DNA of 60,585 bases from the NCBI GenBank assembly GCA_046300175.1, contig JBKCMS010000066.1, positions 1 through 60,585 of the forward strand. Reading direction: 5' to 3'. This stretch comes from Pseudomonadota bacterium. GTDB lineage: Bacteria; Bdellovibrionota_C; UBA2361; OMII01. The notes beneath the pieces were generated by a model. That model was not told where the DNA came from. It was given only the letters and a program-made list of their open reading frames with translations, and did not search any database. Positions 1,443 through 60,193 of the stretch are shown here, piece after piece; positions within the stretch are counted from its first letter, which is position 1; the number at the start of each line of letters is the position of its first letter. Position numbers and translations under genes: made by a program.

Positions 1443-3536
1443 ATGAGCTCGAAGCCACCACAATCTCCCAAAAATTTAAACGCAACTCTATCGGTCGATT
1501 CATTGGTAGGGGGGCTAGTGCATTACGACGACGAGGGGCAAGTCGTGCTCGGGGTCGTAACAGGACTCAAGAAGGATAAAATCATAATACTGACAGAGCG
1601 TGGCCGCGAGCTTGAGCTGATACGGGCGCGGCTACATGTTTTGCCGGGTAAACTAACGGGTGTCTTTGCTTCAACAAACGCACGAGTTGAAAGGCTAAAA
1701 GAATTAGCCAAAGAGATAGAGAATGCCGCTACAACGGTCAACATCATCGAGCTGTGGGAGTTTGTGCACGAGGAGGGGCGCCAGTTCACTGTATCTGAGC
1801 TCAGCACTATGTACCTGGGGTCTGACGATCTTATGAGTCATGCAGCGCTCCGGGTGGCCATGATCCGGGAGCGTATTCACTTCAAGCGAGAGCGCGATAC
1901 TTTTGAGCCAAGAACGCAGCGTGTAGTTGAAGATCTTCGTCGTGCAGAGGATGCAAAAGCCCAGAAGAAGGCGGCCCGCGATCGGTGTCTTGCGTTTCTG
2001 GAGCTTAAAACTTCGGACAATGAAGCGGCAATACCTCCCGATCTAAGAGATTCCTTTCGGTTGATTGAGGAAGTTGCGGCATCAATAGTTCACACGGACC
2101 CGGCAAGACAGAAAGAAGCTCGTGATTTCGTGCATCTTTGTGGGGAGCGTCTAAAGCTACCTGAGAGTATGCCGATAGAGAAGCAAGCCTTTGAGGTGCT
2201 GTGTAAGACCGGCGTATTCAACGAACACACAAACCTTTCGCTCATCCGACACGATATACCACAAGAGCACAATGCTGAAGTGGAAGCTGAGGCAGCAGGG
2301 CAACATGCTCCTTGTGAGCTTGAAGATTTCTCAGTCCATGAAAGGCAATTCCGGCGCGATCTGACATCTGCATTTACGTTTACCATCGATGATATATCGA
2401 CTCAGGATATGGATGATGCGCTCTCTTTGGAGCGCACCCCTGATGGATACGTTTTGGGAATTCATATAACTGACGTGACTATGGCAGTTATGCCAGGGTC
2501 ACGGATAGATCGTGCAGCCAAGAGGCGCGCTACATCGCTGTACTGTGCCGACCGCACCATTAACATGCTCCCATCTCATTTGGCAGAAGGTGTCTGCAGT
2601 CTTAAAGTTGGTGTTGTGCGTCCTTGCCTCTCGGTGTTGGTCAAGTTAAGTGAGTCTCTAGAGATATGCTCAAGCGAGGTGTGTGGTTCTTTTGTGCGGG
2701 TGGGGTGTCGGTATACTTATGATCAGGTAGATGACCTCCTCGAAACAGGGGACTCTACTTTGTTACTGTTGCACGATATCGCGGCAGCATGTGAGGAAGG
2801 CCGAATTCGTAACGGAGCTATGCGCGTTCAGAAGCGCGAAGTAGTGCCTTTCTACGAAGACGGTCAGGTGCGCCTGCAGGAGATAGAGGAGGATAGTCCA
2901 GCCAGATTACTGGTGTCGGAGATGATGGTGCTCGCTAATACAGTCATGGCAAAATTCGCAGCAGCCAATCGAATTCCGGTCCTATTCCGAGGCCAAGAGC
3001 GTCCTGATGATCGTCACGGTGATGCAAATAATCGGGAGCAGGCTCCCGAGGGGCCAGCAAAGGATTTCTCAGCACGTACTAGACTCAAGAAATCATCGGT
3101 ATCATTCGAGCCGGTTCACCACGCAGGACTGGGAGTCGATGCATATATTCAAGCCACTTCTCCGATCCGGCGTTATATGGATCTATGTCATCAACGACAG
3201 CTTCTCTCTTTTTTAAAGGGTGGAGGGCCGTGGATCGCTCCCGGTGAGTTTGAGTCGGTGGCGGCCGAGGTGGAGCTGCCGCTTCAGGAAGCAAATCTTG
3301 CTAGTCGAGAGACGAAGCGGTATTGGCTTCTTCGCTATCTTGAGCAGAGAGAGCGTAATAAGCCGATCGAAGGAACGGTGGTGCGTGTGGACCTAAAGAC
3401 GCCCCTTGTTGAACTAGACGAGGTCTACATTACTGTGCTTGTGCGTTTGCAACAACGTGCTGTGCTAGGCCAGCGAGTAACTCTACGGATCAGTGCAGTC
3501 GATGCTCATGCCGATTATGTAAGGCTAGCACCTTAG
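1443..3536 (+). CDS. RNB-domain exoribonuclease (RNase II/RNase R family)
   Basis: Catalytic motif TIDDISTQDMDDALS, GIHITDV, RATSLY, ATSPIRRYMDL, C-terminal S1-like region. Confidence 0.92.
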   Translation: MSSKPPQSPKNLNATLSVDSLVGGLVHYDDEGQVVLGVVTGLKKDKIIILTERGRELELIRARLHVLPGKLTGVFASTNARVERLKELAKEIENAATTVNIIELWEFVHEEGRQFTVSELSTMYLGSDDLMSHAALRVAMIRERIHFKRERDTFEPRTQRVVEDLRRAEDAKAQKKAARDRCLAFLELKTSDNEAAIPPDLRDSFRLIEEVAASIVHTDPARQKEARDFVHLCGERLKLPESMPIEKQAFEVLCKTGVFNEHTNLSLIRHDIPQEHNAEVEAEAAGQHAPCELEDFSVHERQFRRDLTSAFTFTIDDISTQDMDDALSLERTPDGYVLGIHITDVTMAVMPGSRIDRAAKRRATSLYCADRTINMLPSHLAEGVCSLKVGVVRPCLSVLVKLSESLEICSSEVCGSFVRVGCRYTYDQVDDLLETGDSTLLLLHDIAAACEEGRIRNGAMRVQKREVVPFYEDGQVRLQEIEEDSPARLLVSEMMVLANTVMAKFAAANRIPVLFRGQERPDDRHGDANNREQAPEGPAKDFSARTRLKKSSVSFEPVHHAGLGVDAYIQATSPIRRYMDLCHQRQLLSFLKGGGPWIAPGEFESVAAEVELPLQEANLASRETKRYWLLRYLEQRERNKPIEGTVVRVDLKTPLVELDEVYITVLVRLQQRAVLGQRVTLRISAVDAHADYVRLAP

Positions 3537-3559
3537 AGGCTTGGTTGTTCTAGCTCGCA

Positions 3560-3675
3560 TAAACCCTGCGCGAGTGATTTTTGAAAAAAATCACTCGCAA
3601 TAGCAGGGCGAGCGCAATCTTGGCCCATGAAGATCAAGGGAACAGCCAAGTTGCGTCGTAGAAGACAAAAAACTC
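3560..3675 (+). repeat. 116-bp structured repeat, family B long copy 1
   Basis: Starts TAAACCC with two hairpins; inverted copy at 7660-7775. Confidence 0.85.
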
Positions 3676-3695
3676 TAGCTGTAGAAAGAGACTAT

Positions 3696-3896
3696 CTAGT
3701 TGCTGATAAGCGTGGGACCAGTGATGGCTGAGTAGGTTTTTAACTTAGCAGGAACTTGAAAGCACTTGAGCAAGAGCTCCGGCTGGAGCGCTATGCGAGC
3801 TTCTTGAGACAGGATTAAGTGCATATTGTTGCTCGATGCAGGTAAGTCATCAGAGAGCATCGCGGAGTACCTCTTTTTGAGCGGCAAGACCGTCAC
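3696..3896 (-). CDS. small hypothetical protein
   Basis: 66-aa ORF directly downstream of and co-oriented with 3903-4094; no recognisable motif. Confidence 0.3.
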   Translation of the reverse strand: MTVLPLKKRYSAMLSDDLPASSNNMHLILSQEARIALQPELLLKCFQVPAKLKTYSAITGPTLISN

Positions 3897-3902
3897 TATA
3901 GC

Positions 3903-4094
3903 TCAATGTACCTGCTTATCCGGAATCTGGGAGAGAGATTCAGCTAATACATCGATTTGCAGCTGATCGCATAGCTGACTGATCATCTCAAAGGCTTGAG
4001 TCAGAGAATTTACCTGATCCGTCGTGAGCTCGATTATTTCGGTTGCCAACTCTTCCTCAGTTAATTCTGGGAGGTTAGGTAGAGTCTTTATCAT
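3903..4094 (-). CDS. small acidic hypothetical protein
   Basis: ATG at 4094 preceded by GGAG; helical acidic 63-aa sequence. Confidence 0.5.
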   Translation of the reverse strand: MIKTLPNLPELTEEELATEIIELTTDQVNSLTQAFEMISQLCDQLQIDVLAESLSQIPDKQVH

Positions 4095-4446
4095 GTCGGC
4101 AGCTCCGTAAAGCCCGGTGGGTCTTTTAGTGCCCACAGGAAGTGTTGACCTGCAATTAAGATGCACTATACGTGCCAGAGTCGGCCTCTTGCTGGTCTAT
4201 AGATTCGGTCGGCCTAAATCCCTAGGAGCTTTATAAAGCAAGGCTAATTATATCCGTTAAGGACGGTAAAAATTGTCACGTCGGGCCGTTTATGAGCCGG
4301 CAACTGGAGTTTTAGCTTGGCAGGGAGTCTCAAGATGTGTCAGATATTTGACTTTCTGAAGATGATTTTGGGACCAGCGCTAGGTTAATGGTGCGCCTAA
4401 GCAGAGTCGCAGAATTGGGCTACGGATTTCCGTCATTCGCCACAAA

Positions 4447-5013
4447 TTAGCGCGATCCAGCAGCAGCTTTGATAGCAAGAATTAGCCCCTTATCCTGTGC
4501 GCAGTCAGTCCCCGTTAATACGGAATCAGTGGCATCGAAGTGAACTCGGGTGTTGAGTATCTCGCTACCATCCTGGTCACGCCAATTTAGCCACAGCCCC
4601 ATTCTCTTTGAGTCGAGATATATCGGCCGAAAAGTTAGTGAATGACCATTAGGTAGTTGTAGTGAATCACGCGTCTTTAGCGCAATCACCTCCTCCTTGG
4701 CTGAAAGGAGTTGGAAGCTATCAAATGGCAGTTGTGAGAGCTTAGGCTCAAGATCACGAATCGCAGGGTCAAGCTTCATAGTTCTTGCTGCTGTTGATCT
4801 AGCGTCATCGCCGCTGTGCGGTTCAGATGCTTGTATCGTACGCACTGATAGGGTGACCGAGTGCGTCCCGTCATTGTTGTCCTCAGCAAATGCCCCAGCG
4901 GCTTTACCTGCGATCAAGCTTGCAATTAGCAGTAACCAAAGCCCATTGATCCGCCTTGTTATTAGGTAAGTCGAAAAGGACGCTAAAGATTTTTTTAGGA
5001 TTACAGCTATCAT
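4447..5013 (-). CDS. exported hypothetical protein (third gene of the ECF sigma operon)
   Basis: Hydrophobic signal-like segment ending AFA; starts 5 bp after the anti-sigma stop codon. Confidence 0.7.
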   Translation of the reverse strand: MIAVILKKSLASFSTYLITRRINGLWLLLIASLIAGKAAGAFAEDNNDGTHSVTLSVRTIQASEPHSGDDARSTAARTMKLDPAIRDLEPKLSQLPFDSFQLLSAKEEVIALKTRDSLQLPNGHSLTFRPIYLDSKRMGLWLNWRDQDGSEILNTRVHFDATDSVLTGTDCAQDKGLILAIKAAAGSR

Positions 5014-5018
5014 GGACT

Positions 5019-5918
5019 CTATTTCTCACCACTCTGCCTATGTTCGTCAAGCTGCTGTCGTGGGAACGGACGAGACGGTAGGGGATCGCCCGGACTATCC
5101 AGGGCCATTCCGAGAGGTGTGGCTTCAAGCCTAGCCGCAGAGCTACCTATACCTAAGGAGTCTCTCCTGAGGGAATTATTATCAGGTAAACGGCTCTTGT
5201 GCAGAGGCACAGCTCTGCGACGTATCCAGATGATTGCTGATGAACCCGTTGGATCGGGAATCAACTTGAGCGACCCATTAGCCCGCATCCAGTCGACTTC
5301 CATTGAGTGGTGATGATTGACTGGAGCCACAGCATAGCGCGGACCTGAGGCCGTTGAATTGCCGATAGCAACTGGCTGGATAAATTGGTTATTAGCAACC
5401 GGGCCAGCCATCGGGGCAGAGAAGGAGGTAATCGGCGTTGGCCGCGACATAACGACCAGCAGAGTTGCAGCGACTGCGGCACCTGATAAGCCACCCAGCA
5501 TCGCATGCCGCGGGCTAACGCGTTTCCACAGCGACTCATACCTATGTTCAGATGTCGTCTCAAGGCGTCTAGCGCCGAGATACAGAGCCGCCCGCTGCTC
5601 CTGATCTATTCGCGCATTGATACGAGCCCACAGATCAACCGGCTGGGCACAATCGGATCGAGCGAGATCGGCACAGCGATCCTTGATCGTGCCGAGATCG
5701 GATAAGAAATCACGGGCGCACGCACTGCGTGAGATAAGTCGTCGAGCTAGGAAGGCAGATAGGCACGAACATTGGCCATCGTGAAAGCGCGAGAGCAGCT
5801 GCTCCTGCTTTTCAGAGAGCACTGTTTGTGAGAGACCTTTTTGCGAGTTCTCCGTCTGTGAGCCGTTAGCGGTGTTATTGATTGATTCACCCTTGCGGAA
5901 GCCGGTCATAGTTCTCAT
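5019..5918 (-). CDS. putative membrane-anchored anti-sigma factor
   Basis: ATGA-coupled to the ECF sigma gene; N-terminal LLSRFHDG..C..C anti-sigma-like domain, DLWARI, single TM helix (MLGGLSGAAVAATLLVV). Confidence 0.75.
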   Translation of the reverse strand: MRTMTGFRKGESINNTANGSQTENSQKGLSQTVLSEKQEQLLSRFHDGQCSCLSAFLARRLISRSACARDFLSDLGTIKDRCADLARSDCAQPVDLWARINARIDQEQRAALYLGARRLETTSEHRYESLWKRVSPRHAMLGGLSGAAVAATLLVVMSRPTPITSFSAPMAGPVANNQFIQPVAIGNSTASGPRYAVAPVNHHHSMEVDWMRANGSLKLIPDPTGSSAIIWIRRRAVPLHKSRLPDNNSLRRDSLGIGSSAARLEATPLGMALDSPGDPLPSRPFPRQQLDEHRQSGEK

Positions 5919-6667
5919 TCACCTCGTGCTCGCTGCGCGTATTTCTTAGTATCTCTGAGTATGTCTCGGCGCTCATCTTGAGCCCGCGAATCCCCGCTGT
6001 CTTCAACACGGGTTGATTCAGGAGCATAATCTCTCAAAGCTTCCTGCAGAGCTTTGCGAGCGTAGAACAACCTGCTCATCACCGTGCCACGCGGCACACC
6101 CAGTGCCACCGCGATCTCTTCATAGTCAAGTCCATCAACCTCCCGCAAGGTGATTACTGCTCGATGCTCATCTGACAATCGGGCGAACACCTCGTCGATC
6201 TTTCTGCCGGTTTCTCTGCGGAGCAGAGCTTCCTGTGGCCCTTCAATGTTTTGGCTGACTGGAAGGTCATCCCCAGCTCCAGCGCCTTTATCAGGGACCT
6301 GTATAGTACTAGAGACGCCAAAATCCTCTTTGTATTCAAAATGCTGTCCACCTCGGCGCTGGTTTTTGCGTTGCAGGTCTACCGCCATGTTAAATGTAAT
6401 GCGGTGGAGCCAAGTGTAAAAAGACGACTGATTGCGAAACTTATCTAGTGATAAGAAGGCCTTAACGAAGCTCTCTTGGACTACATCCTCGGCATCGGCG
6501 CTGTTTTTGACTATGTCTAAAGCCACCCTGAGCAGCCGCCCCTGATAGCGTTCTACAAGCAGCCGGTAGGCTTCCCTATCCCCTTTAAGGGTCGAGGCAA
6601 CGAGCGCCTCATCGGCCATTTTGTTCGGGGTGCCCCCATTTTTTGGGCGGTTCATACCCCTATACAA
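5915..6667 (-). CDS. ECF RNA polymerase sigma factor (RpoE-like); start uncertain
   Basis: Region 2 DAEDVVQESFVKAF..FYTWLHRITFN; region 4 LREVDGLDYEEIAVALGVPRGTVMSRLFYAR. Confidence 0.93.
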   Translation of the reverse strand: MYRGMNRPKNGGTPNKMADEALVASTLKGDREAYRLLVERYQGRLLRVALDIVKNSADAEDVVQESFVKAFLSLDKFRNQSSFYTWLHRITFNMAVDLQRKNQRRGGQHFEYKEDFGVSSTIQVPDKGAGAGDDLPVSQNIEGPQEALLRRETGRKIDEVFARLSDEHRAVITLREVDGLDYEEIAVALGVPRGTVMSRLFYARKALQEALRDYAPESTRVEDSGDSRAQDERRDILRDTKKYAQRARGE

Positions 6668-6775
6668 TCACAACTCCGGCAAGGGCTCAACTTCAGGTGT
6701 CTCGCAGGTTGAAAAACTGCTGAGGCCGAGATCGGCCTGCTGGCTTGCTGAGATATTTCGCGGTATCATACGCCC

Positions 6776-7117
6776 ATGCGGTCAACAGCTACGTTATTCA
6801 TTCTTCTAGGAGTGCTCGCGCTTGCCGCGTTCTCATTTCTCTCAGATGATGCATTTGGCAAGCTCTCAAACCTCAATCGTACGCTGGAGCAGCAGCAACG
6901 AACGAACTCGAAACTCTCTGGAACTGTACAAGCTCTCAAGCGAGAGGTCCAAGGACTACAGTCAGACCCGAGAACTGTTGAGAAAGCCGCAAGAAATGAG
7001 CTAGGTATGGCCCGCCCAGGAGAAATGGTTGTCATCTTTGACAAACAGGAAGTGGCGGATACAGCCCGTAATCGTGACTCTGAGCCGGATGGTAAGATAG
7101 ATGGAAAAAATCGATAA
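6776..7117 (+). CDS. ftsB: septum formation initiator FtsB/DivIC family protein
   Basis: N-terminal TM helix, coiled coil, EKAARNELGMARPGE motif. Confidence 0.85.
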   Translation: MRSTATLFILLGVLALAAFSFLSDDAFGKLSNLNRTLEQQQRTNSKLSGTVQALKREVQGLQSDPRTVEKAARNELGMARPGEMVVIFDKQEVADTARNRDSEPDGKIDGKNR

Positions 7118-7493
7118 GCTTCCGGGCCAAAGTCCGCAGGAGCATGATTCTAGTCAGTACATGCCGCGTCGTCGACGCAGCGGCGTGGCTACTGATTTGA
7201 CTAAGGTCAAGGCGATCCTTTCTAAGGTGCTTTCGCACAGAGGACTTGATAAGCGAGTAGAGCGCTACGGCTTTATACTTCATTGGCCAGACATAGTCGG
7301 ACAGCGACTGGCAGAGGTCAGTAAGCCCGATTGTATAGTCAACAAACAGTTGATTGTTAATGTCTTGCATCCTGCTTGGGCGCAGGAGCTAACGATGATT
7401 AAACCGGTCTTGCTTGAATCTCTTGCTCAATACCTAAGGCCGGGAGATGTTGTGCGCGATATGATATTCCGGGTTCGCGACACGAGAGGGTGA
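7101..7493 (+). CDS. dciA: DciA/DUF721 family protein
   Basis: WPDIVG..LA......LIVNV.HPAWAQEL pattern typical of DUF721. Confidence 0.8.
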   Translation: MEKIDKLPGQSPQEHDSSQYMPRRRRSGVATDLTKVKAILSKVLSHRGLDKRVERYGFILHWPDIVGQRLAEVSKPDCIVNKQLIVNVLHPAWAQELTMIKPVLLESLAQYLRPGDVVRDMIFRVRDTRG

Positions 7494-7515
7494 GTGGTTC
7501 AACCTTCCAGTATAA

Positions 7516-7564
7516 TAAACCCTGCGCGAGTGATTTTTGAAAAAAATCACTTGCGCAGGGTTTG
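7516..7564. repeat. 49-bp palindrome, family B short form
   Basis: TAAACCCTGCGCGAGTGATTTT..AAAATCACTTGCGCAGGGTTT; 5' part identical to the copy starting at 3560. Confidence 0.85.
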
Positions 7565-7659
7565 CAATCGGTACTACGAGCGATTTGCTAACATCAAGCA
7601 GTACCGTCCAGAGCTAGAGTCTCTGATGACATTAAAATTTCACACGCTTAAGCACATAG

Positions 7660-7775
7660 GAGTTTGTTGTCTTCTACGGCGCAACTTGGCTGTTCCCTTG
7701 ATCTTCATGGGCCAAGATTGCGCTCGCCCAGCAATTCTCATTCATTTTTTCCAAAAATGAATGAGGCTGGGTTTA
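7660..7775 (-). repeat. 116-bp structured repeat, family B long copy 2
   Basis: Reverse complement aligns without gaps to 3560-3675 with 16 substitutions. Confidence 0.85.
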
Positions 7776-8048
7776 GATATGTGCAATAATAAAGCATATT
7801 TACCTAAGCACTATAGCTGTAATCTGCTCCCCCTATGTTCGAATTTTTCCTGAAATTGTGAAGCTAGCCTCACAGTTTTCTAACACGGCTTTGATTTCGA
7901 AAGAACATAAATACGCTTAGACTACCGCTGGGTTTGTTTGCAGCGACGAATAAACACTACGACCTTTAGTGATATTGATGGTCAAGGCAGTGTGTGTTTG
8001 TGGGCGCGGAGTGCAGCAAACGACTATCGGTCACATTGAGAGCCACTT

Positions 8049-9839
8049 ATGCCTTTTTTCGCTAACAATCCTAAAAACGTATTTGAGGCGATCCTCAAAT
8101 ATGGGCATGACGAGGACTTCAACCCGAAGCCCTCTCCCACATTTGTAGCAACTGATGCACCGGCGGGCTCACTTGAGAAGATAGAGATTCTTAGACAACG
8201 AGTAGAGCTGGGCCAACCGTTGTGGCATGACGGTGACCGGGTGGATTACTCGGGAATCGATCCGATACGCTTTTTTGGTGAAGGTCCTACGGGTGCTGAT
8301 GATGAACAAAGTAATAGCCTAGAGGGTGATTATCCGAGTGATGAAGAGCTGCTAAATAGCAATCAAGAGCCGCAGCCGCCAGGGACTCTTAGTGAAGATA
8401 GCGCTGATGATCATTTTGAGAGCTATTTGAGAGCAAGGGAGTCGCATTCTAGGGGGAATGAGGGAAATGGCGCACTAACGACCCAGACACCGCCACCAAG
8501 AGTGAAACTTGGTGAGTGGGCGACGGGTTTCAAAAAAGAGATGACTGACCTTGTCCTTAAAGATCCGAGAGCAGCATTTGAGATGGCTGCTTCCTGCAGT
8601 CTTAGTAAAAATCCTGAACTAATCAGTGGTAGGTTAGAGTCAGAACAGGAAGCGGCGAAGCGAATGTTCCTGGCGGCAGTGGTTGGAAGATACTCTGAAA
8701 GTAACTTTCCAGAACTGCTTCAGGGATCTCTGCGGTTAGAAAATGCGGCAGACGGGAGCAAATTTTTCCGCAGGTTGGTTCTTAAGGCATTGGGAGTAAT
8801 ATGTACGGGAATTATAGCGCAGTCTAAAAAAGAGATCGCTAAAAACCCGACCAGCAGAGAAACAGTTTGTAATGCTGCCCGTCACGAGATTGTCGGTCTT
8901 GTAAAAGGTGTTAGTGCTTGGAGTAAAAAGTCCTCAAGCGTGGCGTTGCTGGAATCAAGACTTATAAAGGGGCTGTCCCAACGGGACGCAGCCGAGAAGT
9001 TGGGTTTTAAGCGGAAAAAAGCGATTGAACTTGAATCAAGGCTTAAAAAAAAGCTATTTGGCGAGAATCACTACGGTTTAAAAATATTTCCAAGCTCACG
9101 ACCTCCTTATAACAACCCTGCAGGGTACGATAGGGAGCCTAAAGCAGCTGGGAAAGTAACGGCTGGAAATAATCTGTCCGATAAGGAATTTATCGAGCGT
9201 TATTCAGATTGGTTGGGGCCGTGGGCAAAAAAATTCTGTGTAGAGCGTAGCAAATTATTTAGAGAGCTAATGAGTGGTATAAACCGTGATCCTGATGGCA
9301 TATTTGATTACGGGCCTTCGCTCGACGCCAGTTCTTCTCCAACCACCAACGAATTCGCATCCCAAGATCAAGCAGGATACTTTACAAGGATATTCTACGT
9401 TGCGTTCGCCGGTAGGTACGGCAGATTCCCTCAAGGGGGAAATTTGTATCCGATCCCTTTGCGAATGGTTGGCCATCAAATCGGTTGTGACTACTTTCGT
9501 TCCGTAGCTATTACGGCTGCAAGAGCCCAGATAAGTCGGTTACTAGTCAAGTACCCCAATGCTACGGTAGTGCCGAACGATCTGAAACAAGAGATTGCGC
9601 AAGTTCTAAGTAAGGATTTTTTTGTATTTTGGTATGGCTACCCAGAGCGGATCGATTTAGTCAAATCCCGCATTCTTACAGGAACGTCCCTGAAGGAGTT
9701 TGCGGAGAGTAGGCATATTCCCGTGGACAAGGTGAGCAAATGGGAGCAGTATTTCAAAAAAGATTTCGATGTTTTGCGAGGTCGCGACGGTCTTTTCCCT
9801 CTCCCCTCACGCAGAGGTTCCCTGGAGGGCGCCCTTTAA
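8049..9839 (+). CDS. hypothetical protein with duplicated ~240-aa module ending in a sigma-region-4-like HTH
   Basis: 596-aa ORF; internal repeat (RMFLAAVVGRYS / RIFYVAFAGRYG) and two HTH-like segments (GLSQRDAAEKLG / GTSLKEFAESRH). Confidence 0.75.
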   Translation: MPFFANNPKNVFEAILKYGHDEDFNPKPSPTFVATDAPAGSLEKIEILRQRVELGQPLWHDGDRVDYSGIDPIRFFGEGPTGADDEQSNSLEGDYPSDEELLNSNQEPQPPGTLSEDSADDHFESYLRARESHSRGNEGNGALTTQTPPPRVKLGEWATGFKKEMTDLVLKDPRAAFEMAASCSLSKNPELISGRLESEQEAAKRMFLAAVVGRYSESNFPELLQGSLRLENAADGSKFFRRLVLKALGVICTGIIAQSKKEIAKNPTSRETVCNAARHEIVGLVKGVSAWSKKSSSVALLESRLIKGLSQRDAAEKLGFKRKKAIELESRLKKKLFGENHYGLKIFPSSRPPYNNPAGYDREPKAAGKVTAGNNLSDKEFIERYSDWLGPWAKKFCVERSKLFRELMSGINRDPDGIFDYGPSLDASSSPTTNEFASQDQAGYFTRIFYVAFAGRYGRFPQGGNLYPIPLRMVGHQIGCDYFRSVAITAARAQISRLLVKYPNATVVPNDLKQEIAQVLSKDFFVFWYGYPERIDLVKSRILTGTSLKEFAESRHIPVDKVSKWEQYFKKDFDVLRGRDGLFPLPSRRGSLEGAL

Positions 9840-18518: not shown

Positions 18519-19628
18519 ATGCGTACAGTCATTCTCTATAACTCTTCTTGGTATGTCTTTCTGCTTAGACAGAATCTAATTAGGTCGCTGCAATCGGCCG
18601 GACACACCGTAACCGTTATTGCGCCGGAAGATCGATACACTGAGCGTGTTAAGCGTCTGGGTGTTAATTTCGTTCCGATCGCGATGCACGGTAGTGGCAG
18701 CTCTCCGATTGAGGAGGCAGTGACTATAGCAGATGTATACCGGGCGCTCCGAAAGGTGCGAGCTGATGTTGTTCTTTCATTTACGGTGAAATGCAACCTC
18801 TACGCAGGATTGTGTCGTAGGATGCTTGACTTTAGACACGTTGCTAATGTGTCTGGACTTGGGGATATATTTAATACAGGGCCGGCAGTTCGTAGAGGGG
18901 TTTATCTGCTCTATCGGGTTGCATTAGCGCGGACACACTTAATCTTTTTTCAAAACGTAGAAGACCAGGAACGCCTGTGTGCGAGTGGGGCAGTTGATAG
19001 GAATCGCACGCGTGTTATCCCTGGCTCAGGGGTTGATCTGGAAAGATTTATGCCAGCTCAAAGATCGCACCGGCGACAGCGCGCGTTTCTTATGTTTGGT
19101 AGATTACTACCACAGAAGGGCTTTGACAGTTTCATCGAAGCTGCTCGCGAGCTGCGCCACAGATTCGAAGATCGAGTTGCCTTCTGGGTCCTGGGCGCAG
19201 TAGATCAATCACGCAACGAGTCACTTAGGCTGCTGCAGCGGATTAATGAGGCTCATGCGGATGGTATCATCCGTTACCTCGATTCAACTGATGATCCGCT
19301 GCCTTTTATTCGTGAAGCAGATGTAGTGGTGTTACCATCCACTTACAATGAGGGGGTTCCTCGTTCTCTCCTTGAGGCACTGGCATGCGGCAAGCCGGTC
19401 GTAACAACTGATTGGAAGGGTTGCCGGGATACTGTAGAGCATGAGGGTAATGGACTGCTCGTGAGACCAAATGATACAGCATCCCTGATTGATGCTCTCG
19501 GCTCCCTTGCAACGTGTGATATCGGTATGCTTGAGCGCTTAGGTCGTCGAAGTAGACACGTTGCAGAACAGCGCTTTGATGAGCGCATAGTACTAAACGC
19601 CTACCTAGAGTCTTTATCTCCGTGCTAA
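18519..19628 (+). CDS. glycosyltransferase family 4
   Basis: FFQNVED, PGSGVDL, GRLLPQKG, EGVPRSLLEA, GCRDTV. Confidence 0.92.
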   Translation: MRTVILYNSSWYVFLLRQNLIRSLQSAGHTVTVIAPEDRYTERVKRLGVNFVPIAMHGSGSSPIEEAVTIADVYRALRKVRADVVLSFTVKCNLYAGLCRRMLDFRHVANVSGLGDIFNTGPAVRRGVYLLYRVALARTHLIFFQNVEDQERLCASGAVDRNRTRVIPGSGVDLERFMPAQRSHRRQRAFLMFGRLLPQKGFDSFIEAARELRHRFEDRVAFWVLGAVDQSRNESLRLLQRINEAHADGIIRYLDSTDDPLPFIREADVVVLPSTYNEGVPRSLLEALACGKPVVTTDWKGCRDTVEHEGNGLLVRPNDTASLIDALGSLATCDIGMLERLGRRSRHVAEQRFDERIVLNAYLESLSPC

Positions 19629-19674
19629 ACCCAGAGCGAGTGAATTCTGATTAAAATCACTCGCGCAGGGTTTA
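19626..19674. repeat. 49-bp palindrome, family B short form
   Basis: TAAACCCAGAGCGAGTGA..TCACTCGCGCAGGGTTTA; its TAA is the stop codon of the glycosyltransferase; lies between convergent genes. Confidence 0.8.
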
Positions 19675-19739
19675 TTTAAAGATGAAGCATGAACCACAAC
19701 CTGTAAAATCGGTGATTAGTTACAAAAACAGGTGAGTGG

Positions 19740-40788: not shown

Positions 40789-40937
40789 TTATATTGATGT
40801 GCAAAAGTCCGTGCCAGTAAAACTGGCAAGGCTTTTGCGTTACATCACTAGAAGTTGTTGTTTTGATTCGCATCCGCGAATCGATAGCGTTCCCCAAAAG
40901 CCCGGATTTCGCTACGGACTTCTGGAGAACGCTATAA
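40789..40937 (+). mobile_element. 149-bp palindromic MITE-like repeat, family A copy 3
   Basis: Ungapped alignment to copy 1; flanks t|TATA...TATA|a. Confidence 0.85.
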
Positions 40938-51136: not shown

Positions 51137-51285
51137 CCATAGCGATGTGCAAAATGGTGGGCCAGTAAAACTGGCAAGACGTTTGCTGTAAATCTCTGTG
51201 GAGTATTGTTTTGATGCGCATCCGCGAATCAATAGCGTTTTCCAAGAGCCAGGATTTCGCTACGGACTTTTGGAAAACGCTATAG
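51137..51285 (+). mobile_element. 149-bp palindromic MITE-like repeat, family A copy 4 (most diverged)
   Basis: Ungapped alignment to copy 1; starts 10 bp after the tRNA CCA and abuts the prs ribosome-binding site. Confidence 0.82.
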
Positions 51286-60129: not shown

Positions 60130-60193
60130 CAAATATTTCTCTCAGAGACCGCGCGCAGGCCCCAAATATTTCTCTCAGAGACCGCGCGCAGGC
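60130..60193 (+). repeat. 31-bp direct repeat with 33-bp period
   Basis: CAAATATTTCTCTCAGAGACCGCGCGCAGGC at 60130-60160 and 60163-60193. Confidence 0.85.

Follow-up and report, generated by a model that had tools for sequence, protein, structure and literature searches.

How two copies of a short repeat can come to differ mostly in ways that keep a stem intact is the question posed by a 116-nt unit found twice in the window, i.e. the whole 60,585-nt stretch of DNA analysed here, which is contig C66 of an assembly (G000) of 3.36 Mb in 212 contigs with 50.7% G+C. The copies at 3560-3675 (+) and 7660-7775 (-) align without gaps over 116 nt, with 86% identity and 16 differences. An RNAalifold analysis bears out the original prediction that 12 of these 16 differences form six compensated pairs, and all six fall in hairpin 1 (columns 8-46, 11-39, 12-38, 13-37, 15-35, and 17-33). 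The four unpaired differences are in the loop (column 25), the 4-nt bulge (column 43), hairpin 2 (column 97, G-U versus G-C), and the tail (column 110). The 3' part of about 70 nt had been described as nearly constant, and hairpin 2 and the tail indeed show only 2 differences between the window copies.

Architecture of the unit

Folded as single-stranded DNA, the two copies have energies of -32.9 and -31.8 kcal/mol (z about -8.3), and none of 200 shuffles folds as well as either of them. The opposite strands of both copies fold equally well. Each copy opens with a flanking TA (3560-3561 and 7774-7775) that lies outside the element. Hairpin 1 is made of an outer arm, which is a terminal repeat of about 21 nt, and an inverted copy of the same arm that has a bulge of 4 nt (AATA or AATT) in it. 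The outer arm is built of AACCC.GC, an 8-nt block, and ATTTT (consensus AACCC.GC........ATTTT). The block comes in two types: it is GCGAGTGA in type A and CTCATTCA in type B, and the B-type end at 7660-7773 has the stem-1 block CTCATTCA/TGAATGAG with the bulge AATT.

The stem of hairpin 2 (GCGCAATCTTGGC/GCCAAGTTGCGC; window 3609-3658) is conserved in the copies, including those of relatives. Its top is swapped wholesale between subfamilies and is about 3 to about 20 nt long. In three very short MITEs (L040, L062, and L066), the 16 nt of hairpin 2 of the left end pair with those of the right end instead. A scan for terminator patterns called neither hairpin 1 nor hairpin 2.

A repeat family with two types of ends

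The 61-nt scaffold of the unit (3615-3675) has 80 BLAST matches in the 3.36-Mb assembly, of which 51 are at least 45 nt long. The flank on the outside is unique to each scaffold copy, while the inward continuation is one of two kinds, and a T always precedes AAACCC in the aligned scaffold copies. Beyond the 116 nt, the inward similarity follows one course for type A and another for type B. The genome contains 253 terminal arms (129 A, 124 B), and 46 A-type and 53 B-type ends have the bulged hairpin. Of the hairpin-bearing ends, 54 have an interior that can be recognised; those of type A adjoin the left interior in 20 cases and the right interior in 1, and those of type B adjoin the left interior in 1 case and the right interior in 32. 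Since 52 of the 54 ends fit the association of A with left and B with right, the two alleles correspond to the left end and the right end of a single element family. Differing left and right terminal arms are seen in many insertion sequences.

The arrangement of the ends is in line with this. Inverted A...B pairs lie 580-741 bp apart on contigs C22, C50, C59, and C209, and 39 of the 42 nearest-neighbour pairs of at least 79 bp are heterotypic (A with B), the pairing of ends being a nearest-neighbour heuristic in which some pairs overlap or join unrelated ends. Only two main stem alleles, with minor variants, are found in the 253 arms of this genome and in the 45 copies taken from 8 other genomes. 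A search of 41 genomes, counting G000, detected element DNA in 13; it occurs in 11 of the 24 other genomes of the genus and in 1 of the 16 remaining ones in the order. Many of the copies are found where contigs end, and a family of some 250 terminal arms breaks the assembly. One locus of another genome (L065, G004:C7:8070-8430) has at least three head-to-tail copies of a unit of about 92 nt, an array of ends and not an inverted pair; in each unit, hairpin 1 is of type A and hairpin 2 is short, and the tail runs directly into the next TAG(A/C)CCC start.

Target duplication, transposase remnants, and class

TA precedes 207 of the 253 terminal arms, and 52 of the 72 nearest-neighbour pairs are flanked as TA...TA. 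Three filled sites (TA-element-TA) could be compared with paralogous empty sites, which have a single TA: elements of 593 bp and 350 bp and a 45-bp A/B element, with 31, 3, and 3 empty-site matches, respectively, all three of which had inserted into other repeat families (a family of about 149 nt supplied the paralogous empty sites). Orthologous empty sites were unusable because the flanking dciA has only 66-75% DNA identity in relatives and the intergenic DNA gives no alignment.

The interiors of the elements encode a decayed transposase C-terminus ('LPPYSPNLNLIERLW' / '...FLPPYSPNLNLIERLWRFLKK...'). This remnant matches Pfam DDE_3 (E = 2.3e-15, 57.2 bits, cut-off 28.6) and positions 230-294 of the 299 of the NCBIfam IS630 profile NF033545 (transpos_IS630, E = 6.1e-19), the latter match being fragmentary and short of the full-length cut-off. 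On the A side there is what is left of an N-terminal helix-turn-helix, for which the Pfam matches are all sub-threshold; for the translation of 3676-3901 in the window ('DRIKCILLLDAGKSSESIAEYLFLSGKTVT') these are GerE (2.3e-4) and HTH_23 (7.6e-3). A linked IS630 gene was among the things that the original prediction proposed to look for, and remnants of an IS630-type transposase are found inside the elements themselves.

The inverted ends, the TA duplication, and the DDE_3/IS630 remnant together identify a MITE family in the IS630/Tc1-mariner group. It has the marks of such families: duplication of TA, bounding terminal inverted repeats, internal homology to DDE transposases, and many copies with no intact transposase. 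We consider it very probable that this non-autonomous, IS630/Tc1-mariner-derived family has the 116-nt unit as its long terminal inverted repeat, and we take template switching, discussed below, as the likelier origin of the compensation between the copies.

The search for an intact transposase in G000 was negative: a motif scan returned 7 remnants, the longest of 97 aa, and the DDE_3 profile gave 9 matches, all of them fragments, with a longest surrounding open frame of 141 aa. The genomes searched for an autonomous parent are fragmented metagenome assemblies, and among the 35 from the genus there were 5 with a DDE_3 match, none intact (longest open frame 144 aa). Of 21 loci in the species collection, the one inspected, an outgroup locus from Chlamydiales (L077), has a 128-aa remnant with different repeats. 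A search of the plasmid collection gave no match to a 583-bp copy.

The non-autonomous copies suggest how the ends of the parent may have been organised and bound. The A end would lie on the left, upstream of the N-terminus of the transposase, and the B end on the right, behind its C-terminus, in a family that probably moved by cut-and-paste, inserting at TA and duplicating it. The outermost 21 nt or so would be the working terminal repeat, bound by the helix-turn-helix domain of the transposase.

Two separate insertions in the window

The window copies are two separate insertions and not the two ends of one element (Table 1). Repeat similarity is limited to 3538-3907 and 7494-7782, and the DNA from 3908 to 7493 is unique host DNA, with genes for an ECF sigma factor, a DivIC-type protein, and DciA. 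The genes of RNase II and the ECF sigma factor also adjoin in three other genomes (G042:C2, G017:C191, and G002:C157), which identifies the 3.6 kb between the copies as resident host DNA. A single 4.2-kb cargo element spanning 3560-7775 is ruled out, since there are unique host genes in between and 7518-7773 is complete alone.

Table 1. Positions of the elements of the family and of their parts in the window.
Feature	Position	Strand	Evidence
TA, target dinucleotide beside the left (A-type) end	3560-3561		207/253 arms preceded by TA; paralogous empty sites with single TA
A-type (left) long terminal repeat	3562-3675	+	46 A-type bulged-hairpin ends in genome; A adjoins left interior in 20/21
Hairpin 1 of A-type end	3564-3608	+	Outer arm, GAA loop, inner inverted arm with AATA bulge
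Hairpin 2 of A-type end	3609-3658	+	Alignment and fold
Tail of A-type end	3659-3675	+	Alignment and fold
Decayed 5' part of IS630-type transposase gene (helix-turn-helix remnant with stops)	3676-3901	+	Repeat similarity ends near 3907
TA at left flank of 256-bp composite MITE	7516-7517		Sequence context
45-bp A/A palindrome, left terminus of composite MITE	7518-7562		Two A-type arms, GAA spacer, one mismatch
3' remnant of transposase gene ('NRYYERFANIKQYRPELESLM...'), running into right end	7563-7659	+	Homologous remnants elsewhere match DDE_3, IS630 NF033545
B-type (right) long terminal repeat, same two hairpins	7660-7773	-	53 B-type bulged ends; B adjoins right interior in 32/33
TA beside right (B-type) end	7774-7775		Sequence context
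Degenerate A-type palindrome (mini-element), same family	19627-19676		Window repeats and arm census

The second insertion (7518-7773) is a complete, TA-flanked composite element of 256 bp. Composites with the A/A palindrome as a new left end recur at C192:37977 and C17:30752, making three copies with that of the window; positions 7563-7564 are TG in the window copy and TA in its siblings. The hairpin at 7515-7563 had been a candidate for an independent, stand-alone repeat, a view revised to that of the left terminus of the composite, as in the two siblings.

The first insertion is a left half (3562-3901) cut off at CACTATAG (3894-3901), a boundary that it has in common with copies on C196, C72, and C189. 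All four left halves (3890-3901 in the window) stop at ...CCGTCACTATAG and are followed by unrelated DNA. The last bases of this boundary resemble the end (..ATCACTATAG) of a small repeat, TATAGTGAAGTGCAAAAGTCCGTGCC..., that is nested in C209 and C24. The CCGTCACTATAG boundary may be an end common to several repeat families or borrowed between them.

Origin of the compensated differences

The original prediction saw in the two copies a fixed scaffold with a stem that varies in sequence and keeps its structure. The other copies in the genome tell otherwise. In the 99 hairpin-bearing ends, 1289 of the 1386 cells of the stem match the allele of their own end. The changed cells comprise 58 that are broken on one side, 32 with a one-sided G.T, and 7 changed on both sides (4 of them Watson-Crick). 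With 90 of 97 changed cells one-sided and only two main alleles, each bound to one side of the element, that description is not supported. It had itself named mostly uncompensated changes in further copies, or a match to the end of an insertion sequence, as outcomes speaking against it, and both are what we found.

The six swaps would have a simpler origin. Hairpin 1 would exist because an inverted copy of the arm stands directly behind the outer arm; the left and right arms would have diverged from each other while each inner arm agrees with its own outer arm, and it is this agreement that would appear as six 'compensatory swaps' when a left end is compared with a right end. The match between inner and outer arm would be kept mainly by intrastrand template switching, which transfers the sequence of one arm to the other in one mutational step. 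Template switching is described as creating and repairing stems in one event (PMC8794818).

Three patterns in the copies favour this mechanism. First, the bulge has been resolved both ways: the 4 nt are missing from both arms in the 45-bp palindromes and present in both arms (TATT/AATA) in variant L040, i.e. copied into the outer arm. Second, the genome has 29 mini-elements of 42-46 bp, which consist of only two arms and a 3-nt spacer, and the homotypic forms are as common as the heterotypic ones (11 A/A, 9 B/B, and 9 A/B). Third, dead copies have 4 compensated double changes where 1.1 are expected (P = 0.024), a weak excess under a crude model of double changes that ignores transition bias. 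The additional compensated changes in about six rows from other species, given below, likewise point to copying between arms. From these patterns and the published mechanism we infer that template switching causes the compensation. Arm-to-arm templated correction had been one of the readings offered by the original prediction, and it gives the best account of the compensated changes.

There is one feature that neither neutral drift nor template switching alone accounts for, namely the strong divergence of the block. The divergence between the ends is concentrated in the 19-pair stem, which has 12 of the 16 differences, versus 2 in hairpin 2 and the tail. This packing is best explained by an alternative that we regard as possible, if rather doubtful: the ends are of IS630 type, but hairpin 1 was functional in the autonomous parent, and selection keeps the inner arm complementary to the outer one. 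In that case hairpin 1 might have worked at the DNA level, extruded as a cruciform or in single strands, or within the RNA of read-through or transposase transcripts; it might also have offered a transposase dimer a palindromic site.

The comparison across species lends this alternative some further weight. Adding the 2 window copies to the 45 from the 8 other genomes gave an alignment of 47 sequences, of which 40 are distinct. The other species again have two alleles, and 95.5% of 757 stem cells are paired, a level maintained over 40 distinct sequences from several species; the 47-sequence alignment includes 34 unpaired and 14 wobble cells. None of 500 shuffles of this alignment reaches the observed pairing, although relatedness alone can produce such an excess and the related sequences inflate the shuffle statistics. 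Both sides are changed in 82 cells, about 80 of them owing to the split between A and B; other compensated changes are found in about six further rows from other species. A selected hairpin would thus have in its favour the six compensated A/B pairs and at least five further compensated changes in other lineages, along with its high stability (z about -8.3) and an architecture (the AATA bulge and the closing GC.GGG) that is alike at both ends in all species seen.

The behaviour of reduced copies argues against such selection. Six copies at different sites have a common deletion junction, formed at a microhomology (AAAATC) that the hairpin loop shares with the transposase remnant, and keep only the outer A arm at their left end. 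Because six sites share one junction, these copies represent a subfamily that multiplied after the loss of the inner arm, the bulge, and hairpin 2 on the left side. By this evidence, an end needs no more than a single 21-nt arm. The nine A/B mini-elements are non-palindromic in the block and cannot pair there, and one such 45-bp element has a TA-duplicated filled site to set against empty paralogues. The 45-bp two-arm element may be mobile by itself, and if so, few units moved by a DDE transposase would be smaller. In addition, the terminator-pattern scan does not pick out hairpin 1, cleavage in the Tc1/mariner/IS630 group is described as proceeding without a hairpin, and the account of ISY100 gives a need for about 24-30 bp per end (PMC2170065).

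A stricter version seems improbable to us. It holds that the termini are obligate fold-backs, so that the ends of the parent must form hairpin 1, as a cruciform, single-stranded DNA, or RNA, for recognition or regulation. If this were true, the compensated changes between left and right ends and across species would record selection on structure. We know of no obligate fold-back requirement in Tc1/mariner/IS630 transposons.

Structured RNA and REP-like elements

Two stable hairpins with compensated differences also led to the proposal of an unrecognised structured ncRNA gene in which the scaffold is conserved and the first stem covaries, and we judge this very unlikely. No Rfam family matches at threshold: with the gathering threshold, the whole window gave two tRNAs only, and a sensitive scan of 3500-3920 had mir-23 as its best match (E = 0.99). 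Both strands fold equally well, and the context is that of a transposon, with copies that abut TA, run into transposase remnants, and pair as inverted ends. Only two main alleles exist, set by side, and the changes within copies are mostly uncompensated. On these grounds we do not retain the RNA reading, and the terminal inverted repeat of a MITE family remains our interpretation of the unit.

Members of IS200/IS605 have subterminal hairpins on one strand, no inverted repeats, and no target duplication, and they carry a TnpA(Y1) or TnpB gene inside. Membership in that group was rejected, as the family has inverted repeats for ends, a duplicated TA, and a DDE_3 remnant. REP/REPIN-like single-stranded DNA hairpins spread by a RAYT or an IS200-type HUH (Y1) transposase, which the original prediction also suggested together with a linked HUH gene, have hardly any probability: the 45-bp palindromes, present in dozens of copies, resemble REP elements in being short and abundant extragenic palindromes, and the genome has three Y1_Tnp-like loci, but arms do not flank any of the three (they come no nearer than 2.6 kb and 13.9 kb on two contigs and are absent from the third), the elements duplicate TA, their remnants are DDE_3/IS630 and not Y1 genes, the A/B hybrids are non-palindromic, and the hairpins begin with AACCC and have no GTAG or CGTC tag at the foot, the tag given as a REP criterion (PMC3733652).

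Relation to known families

The closest comparison among IS630 elements is with ISY100 of Synechocystis, for which 24-bp imperfect repeats are reported to suffice, 30 bp per end to be enough, and transposition to duplicate TA and to involve no hairpin intermediate (PMC2170065). The family studied here resembles it in the TA duplication, in the DDE_3/IS630-type transposase (here a remnant only), and in imperfect terminal inverted repeats with an essential part of about 21-24 nt; it differs in having ends of about 116 nt with two internal hairpins instead of plain 24-bp repeats (PMC2170065), and no intact transposase was seen.

RUP of Streptococcus pneumoniae is presented as a 107-bp MITE ascribed to IS630-Spn1, and RUP and the Correia/NEMIS elements of Neisseria share with our family a small, non-coding, TA-flanked format bounded by terminal inverted repeats, many intergenic copies, and transcripts or strands with predicted long stem-loops (PMC2229807). 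The differences are that the family here ranges from 42 to about 740 bp, keeps recognisable transposase remnants, and has two alleles of the end, from whose recombination come 45-bp A/A, B/B, and A/B forms. Correia elements have alternative types of terminal inverted repeats too.

Stowaway-like MITEs are described as deletion derivatives of Tc1/mariner elements joined at microhomologies (PMC3814204), to which AAAATC corresponds here; unlike them, our family is in a bacterial host and has sizes down to 45 bp. MITE remnants down to 39 bp are on record for QMITE1 (PMC10969869). Mutagenesis of quasipalindromes by template switching, as described, perfects imperfect inverted repeats and yields multi-base compensation in one event (PMC8794818; PMC7202029). 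It is a mutational process and not an element family, and its action here is suggested by the patterns in the copies. A search of the literature outside subscription journals and ISfinder returned no description of this A/B-ended family.

The A/B-ended family is an ordinary selfish repeat with self-complementary termini of two alleles. It can be taken for ncRNA or REP elements when these freshwater Bdellovibrionota genomes are scanned, and it calls for caution in covariation-based RNA discovery, since transposon ends and the homogenisation of palindromes gave six swaps with no RNA gene involved. Of mild interest are the modular arms, the evidence that a single arm suffices, and a fold-back kept by mutation bias or by function.

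Other features of the window and its surroundings

Three open reading frames near the insertions, 4447-5013(-), 5019-5918(-), and 8049-9839(+), encode 188, 299, and 596 aa and have no Pfam match. The 299-aa frame and the ECF sigma gene share 4 nt at the end of the latter, a position at which an anti-sigma factor would be expected. The 596-aa protein is matched in only 1 of 5 relatives, and there over the first 70 residues or so only. In G000 and G004 the dciA homologue lies beside the ECF sigma gene, and in G042, G002, G017, and G003 its contig is not that of the RNase II and ECF sigma pair; this difference within the genus is either a rearrangement or a matter of where contigs happen to break.

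The repeat family of about 149 nt, which has an internal palindrome, is present in the window at 1-149, 1195-1343, 40789-40937, and 51137-51285. A copy of it nested inside an element on C209 has about 200-235 BLAST matches genome-wide. Near the end of the window, 60130-60193 contains a perfect 31-nt direct repeat in two copies, whose starts are 33 nt apart.
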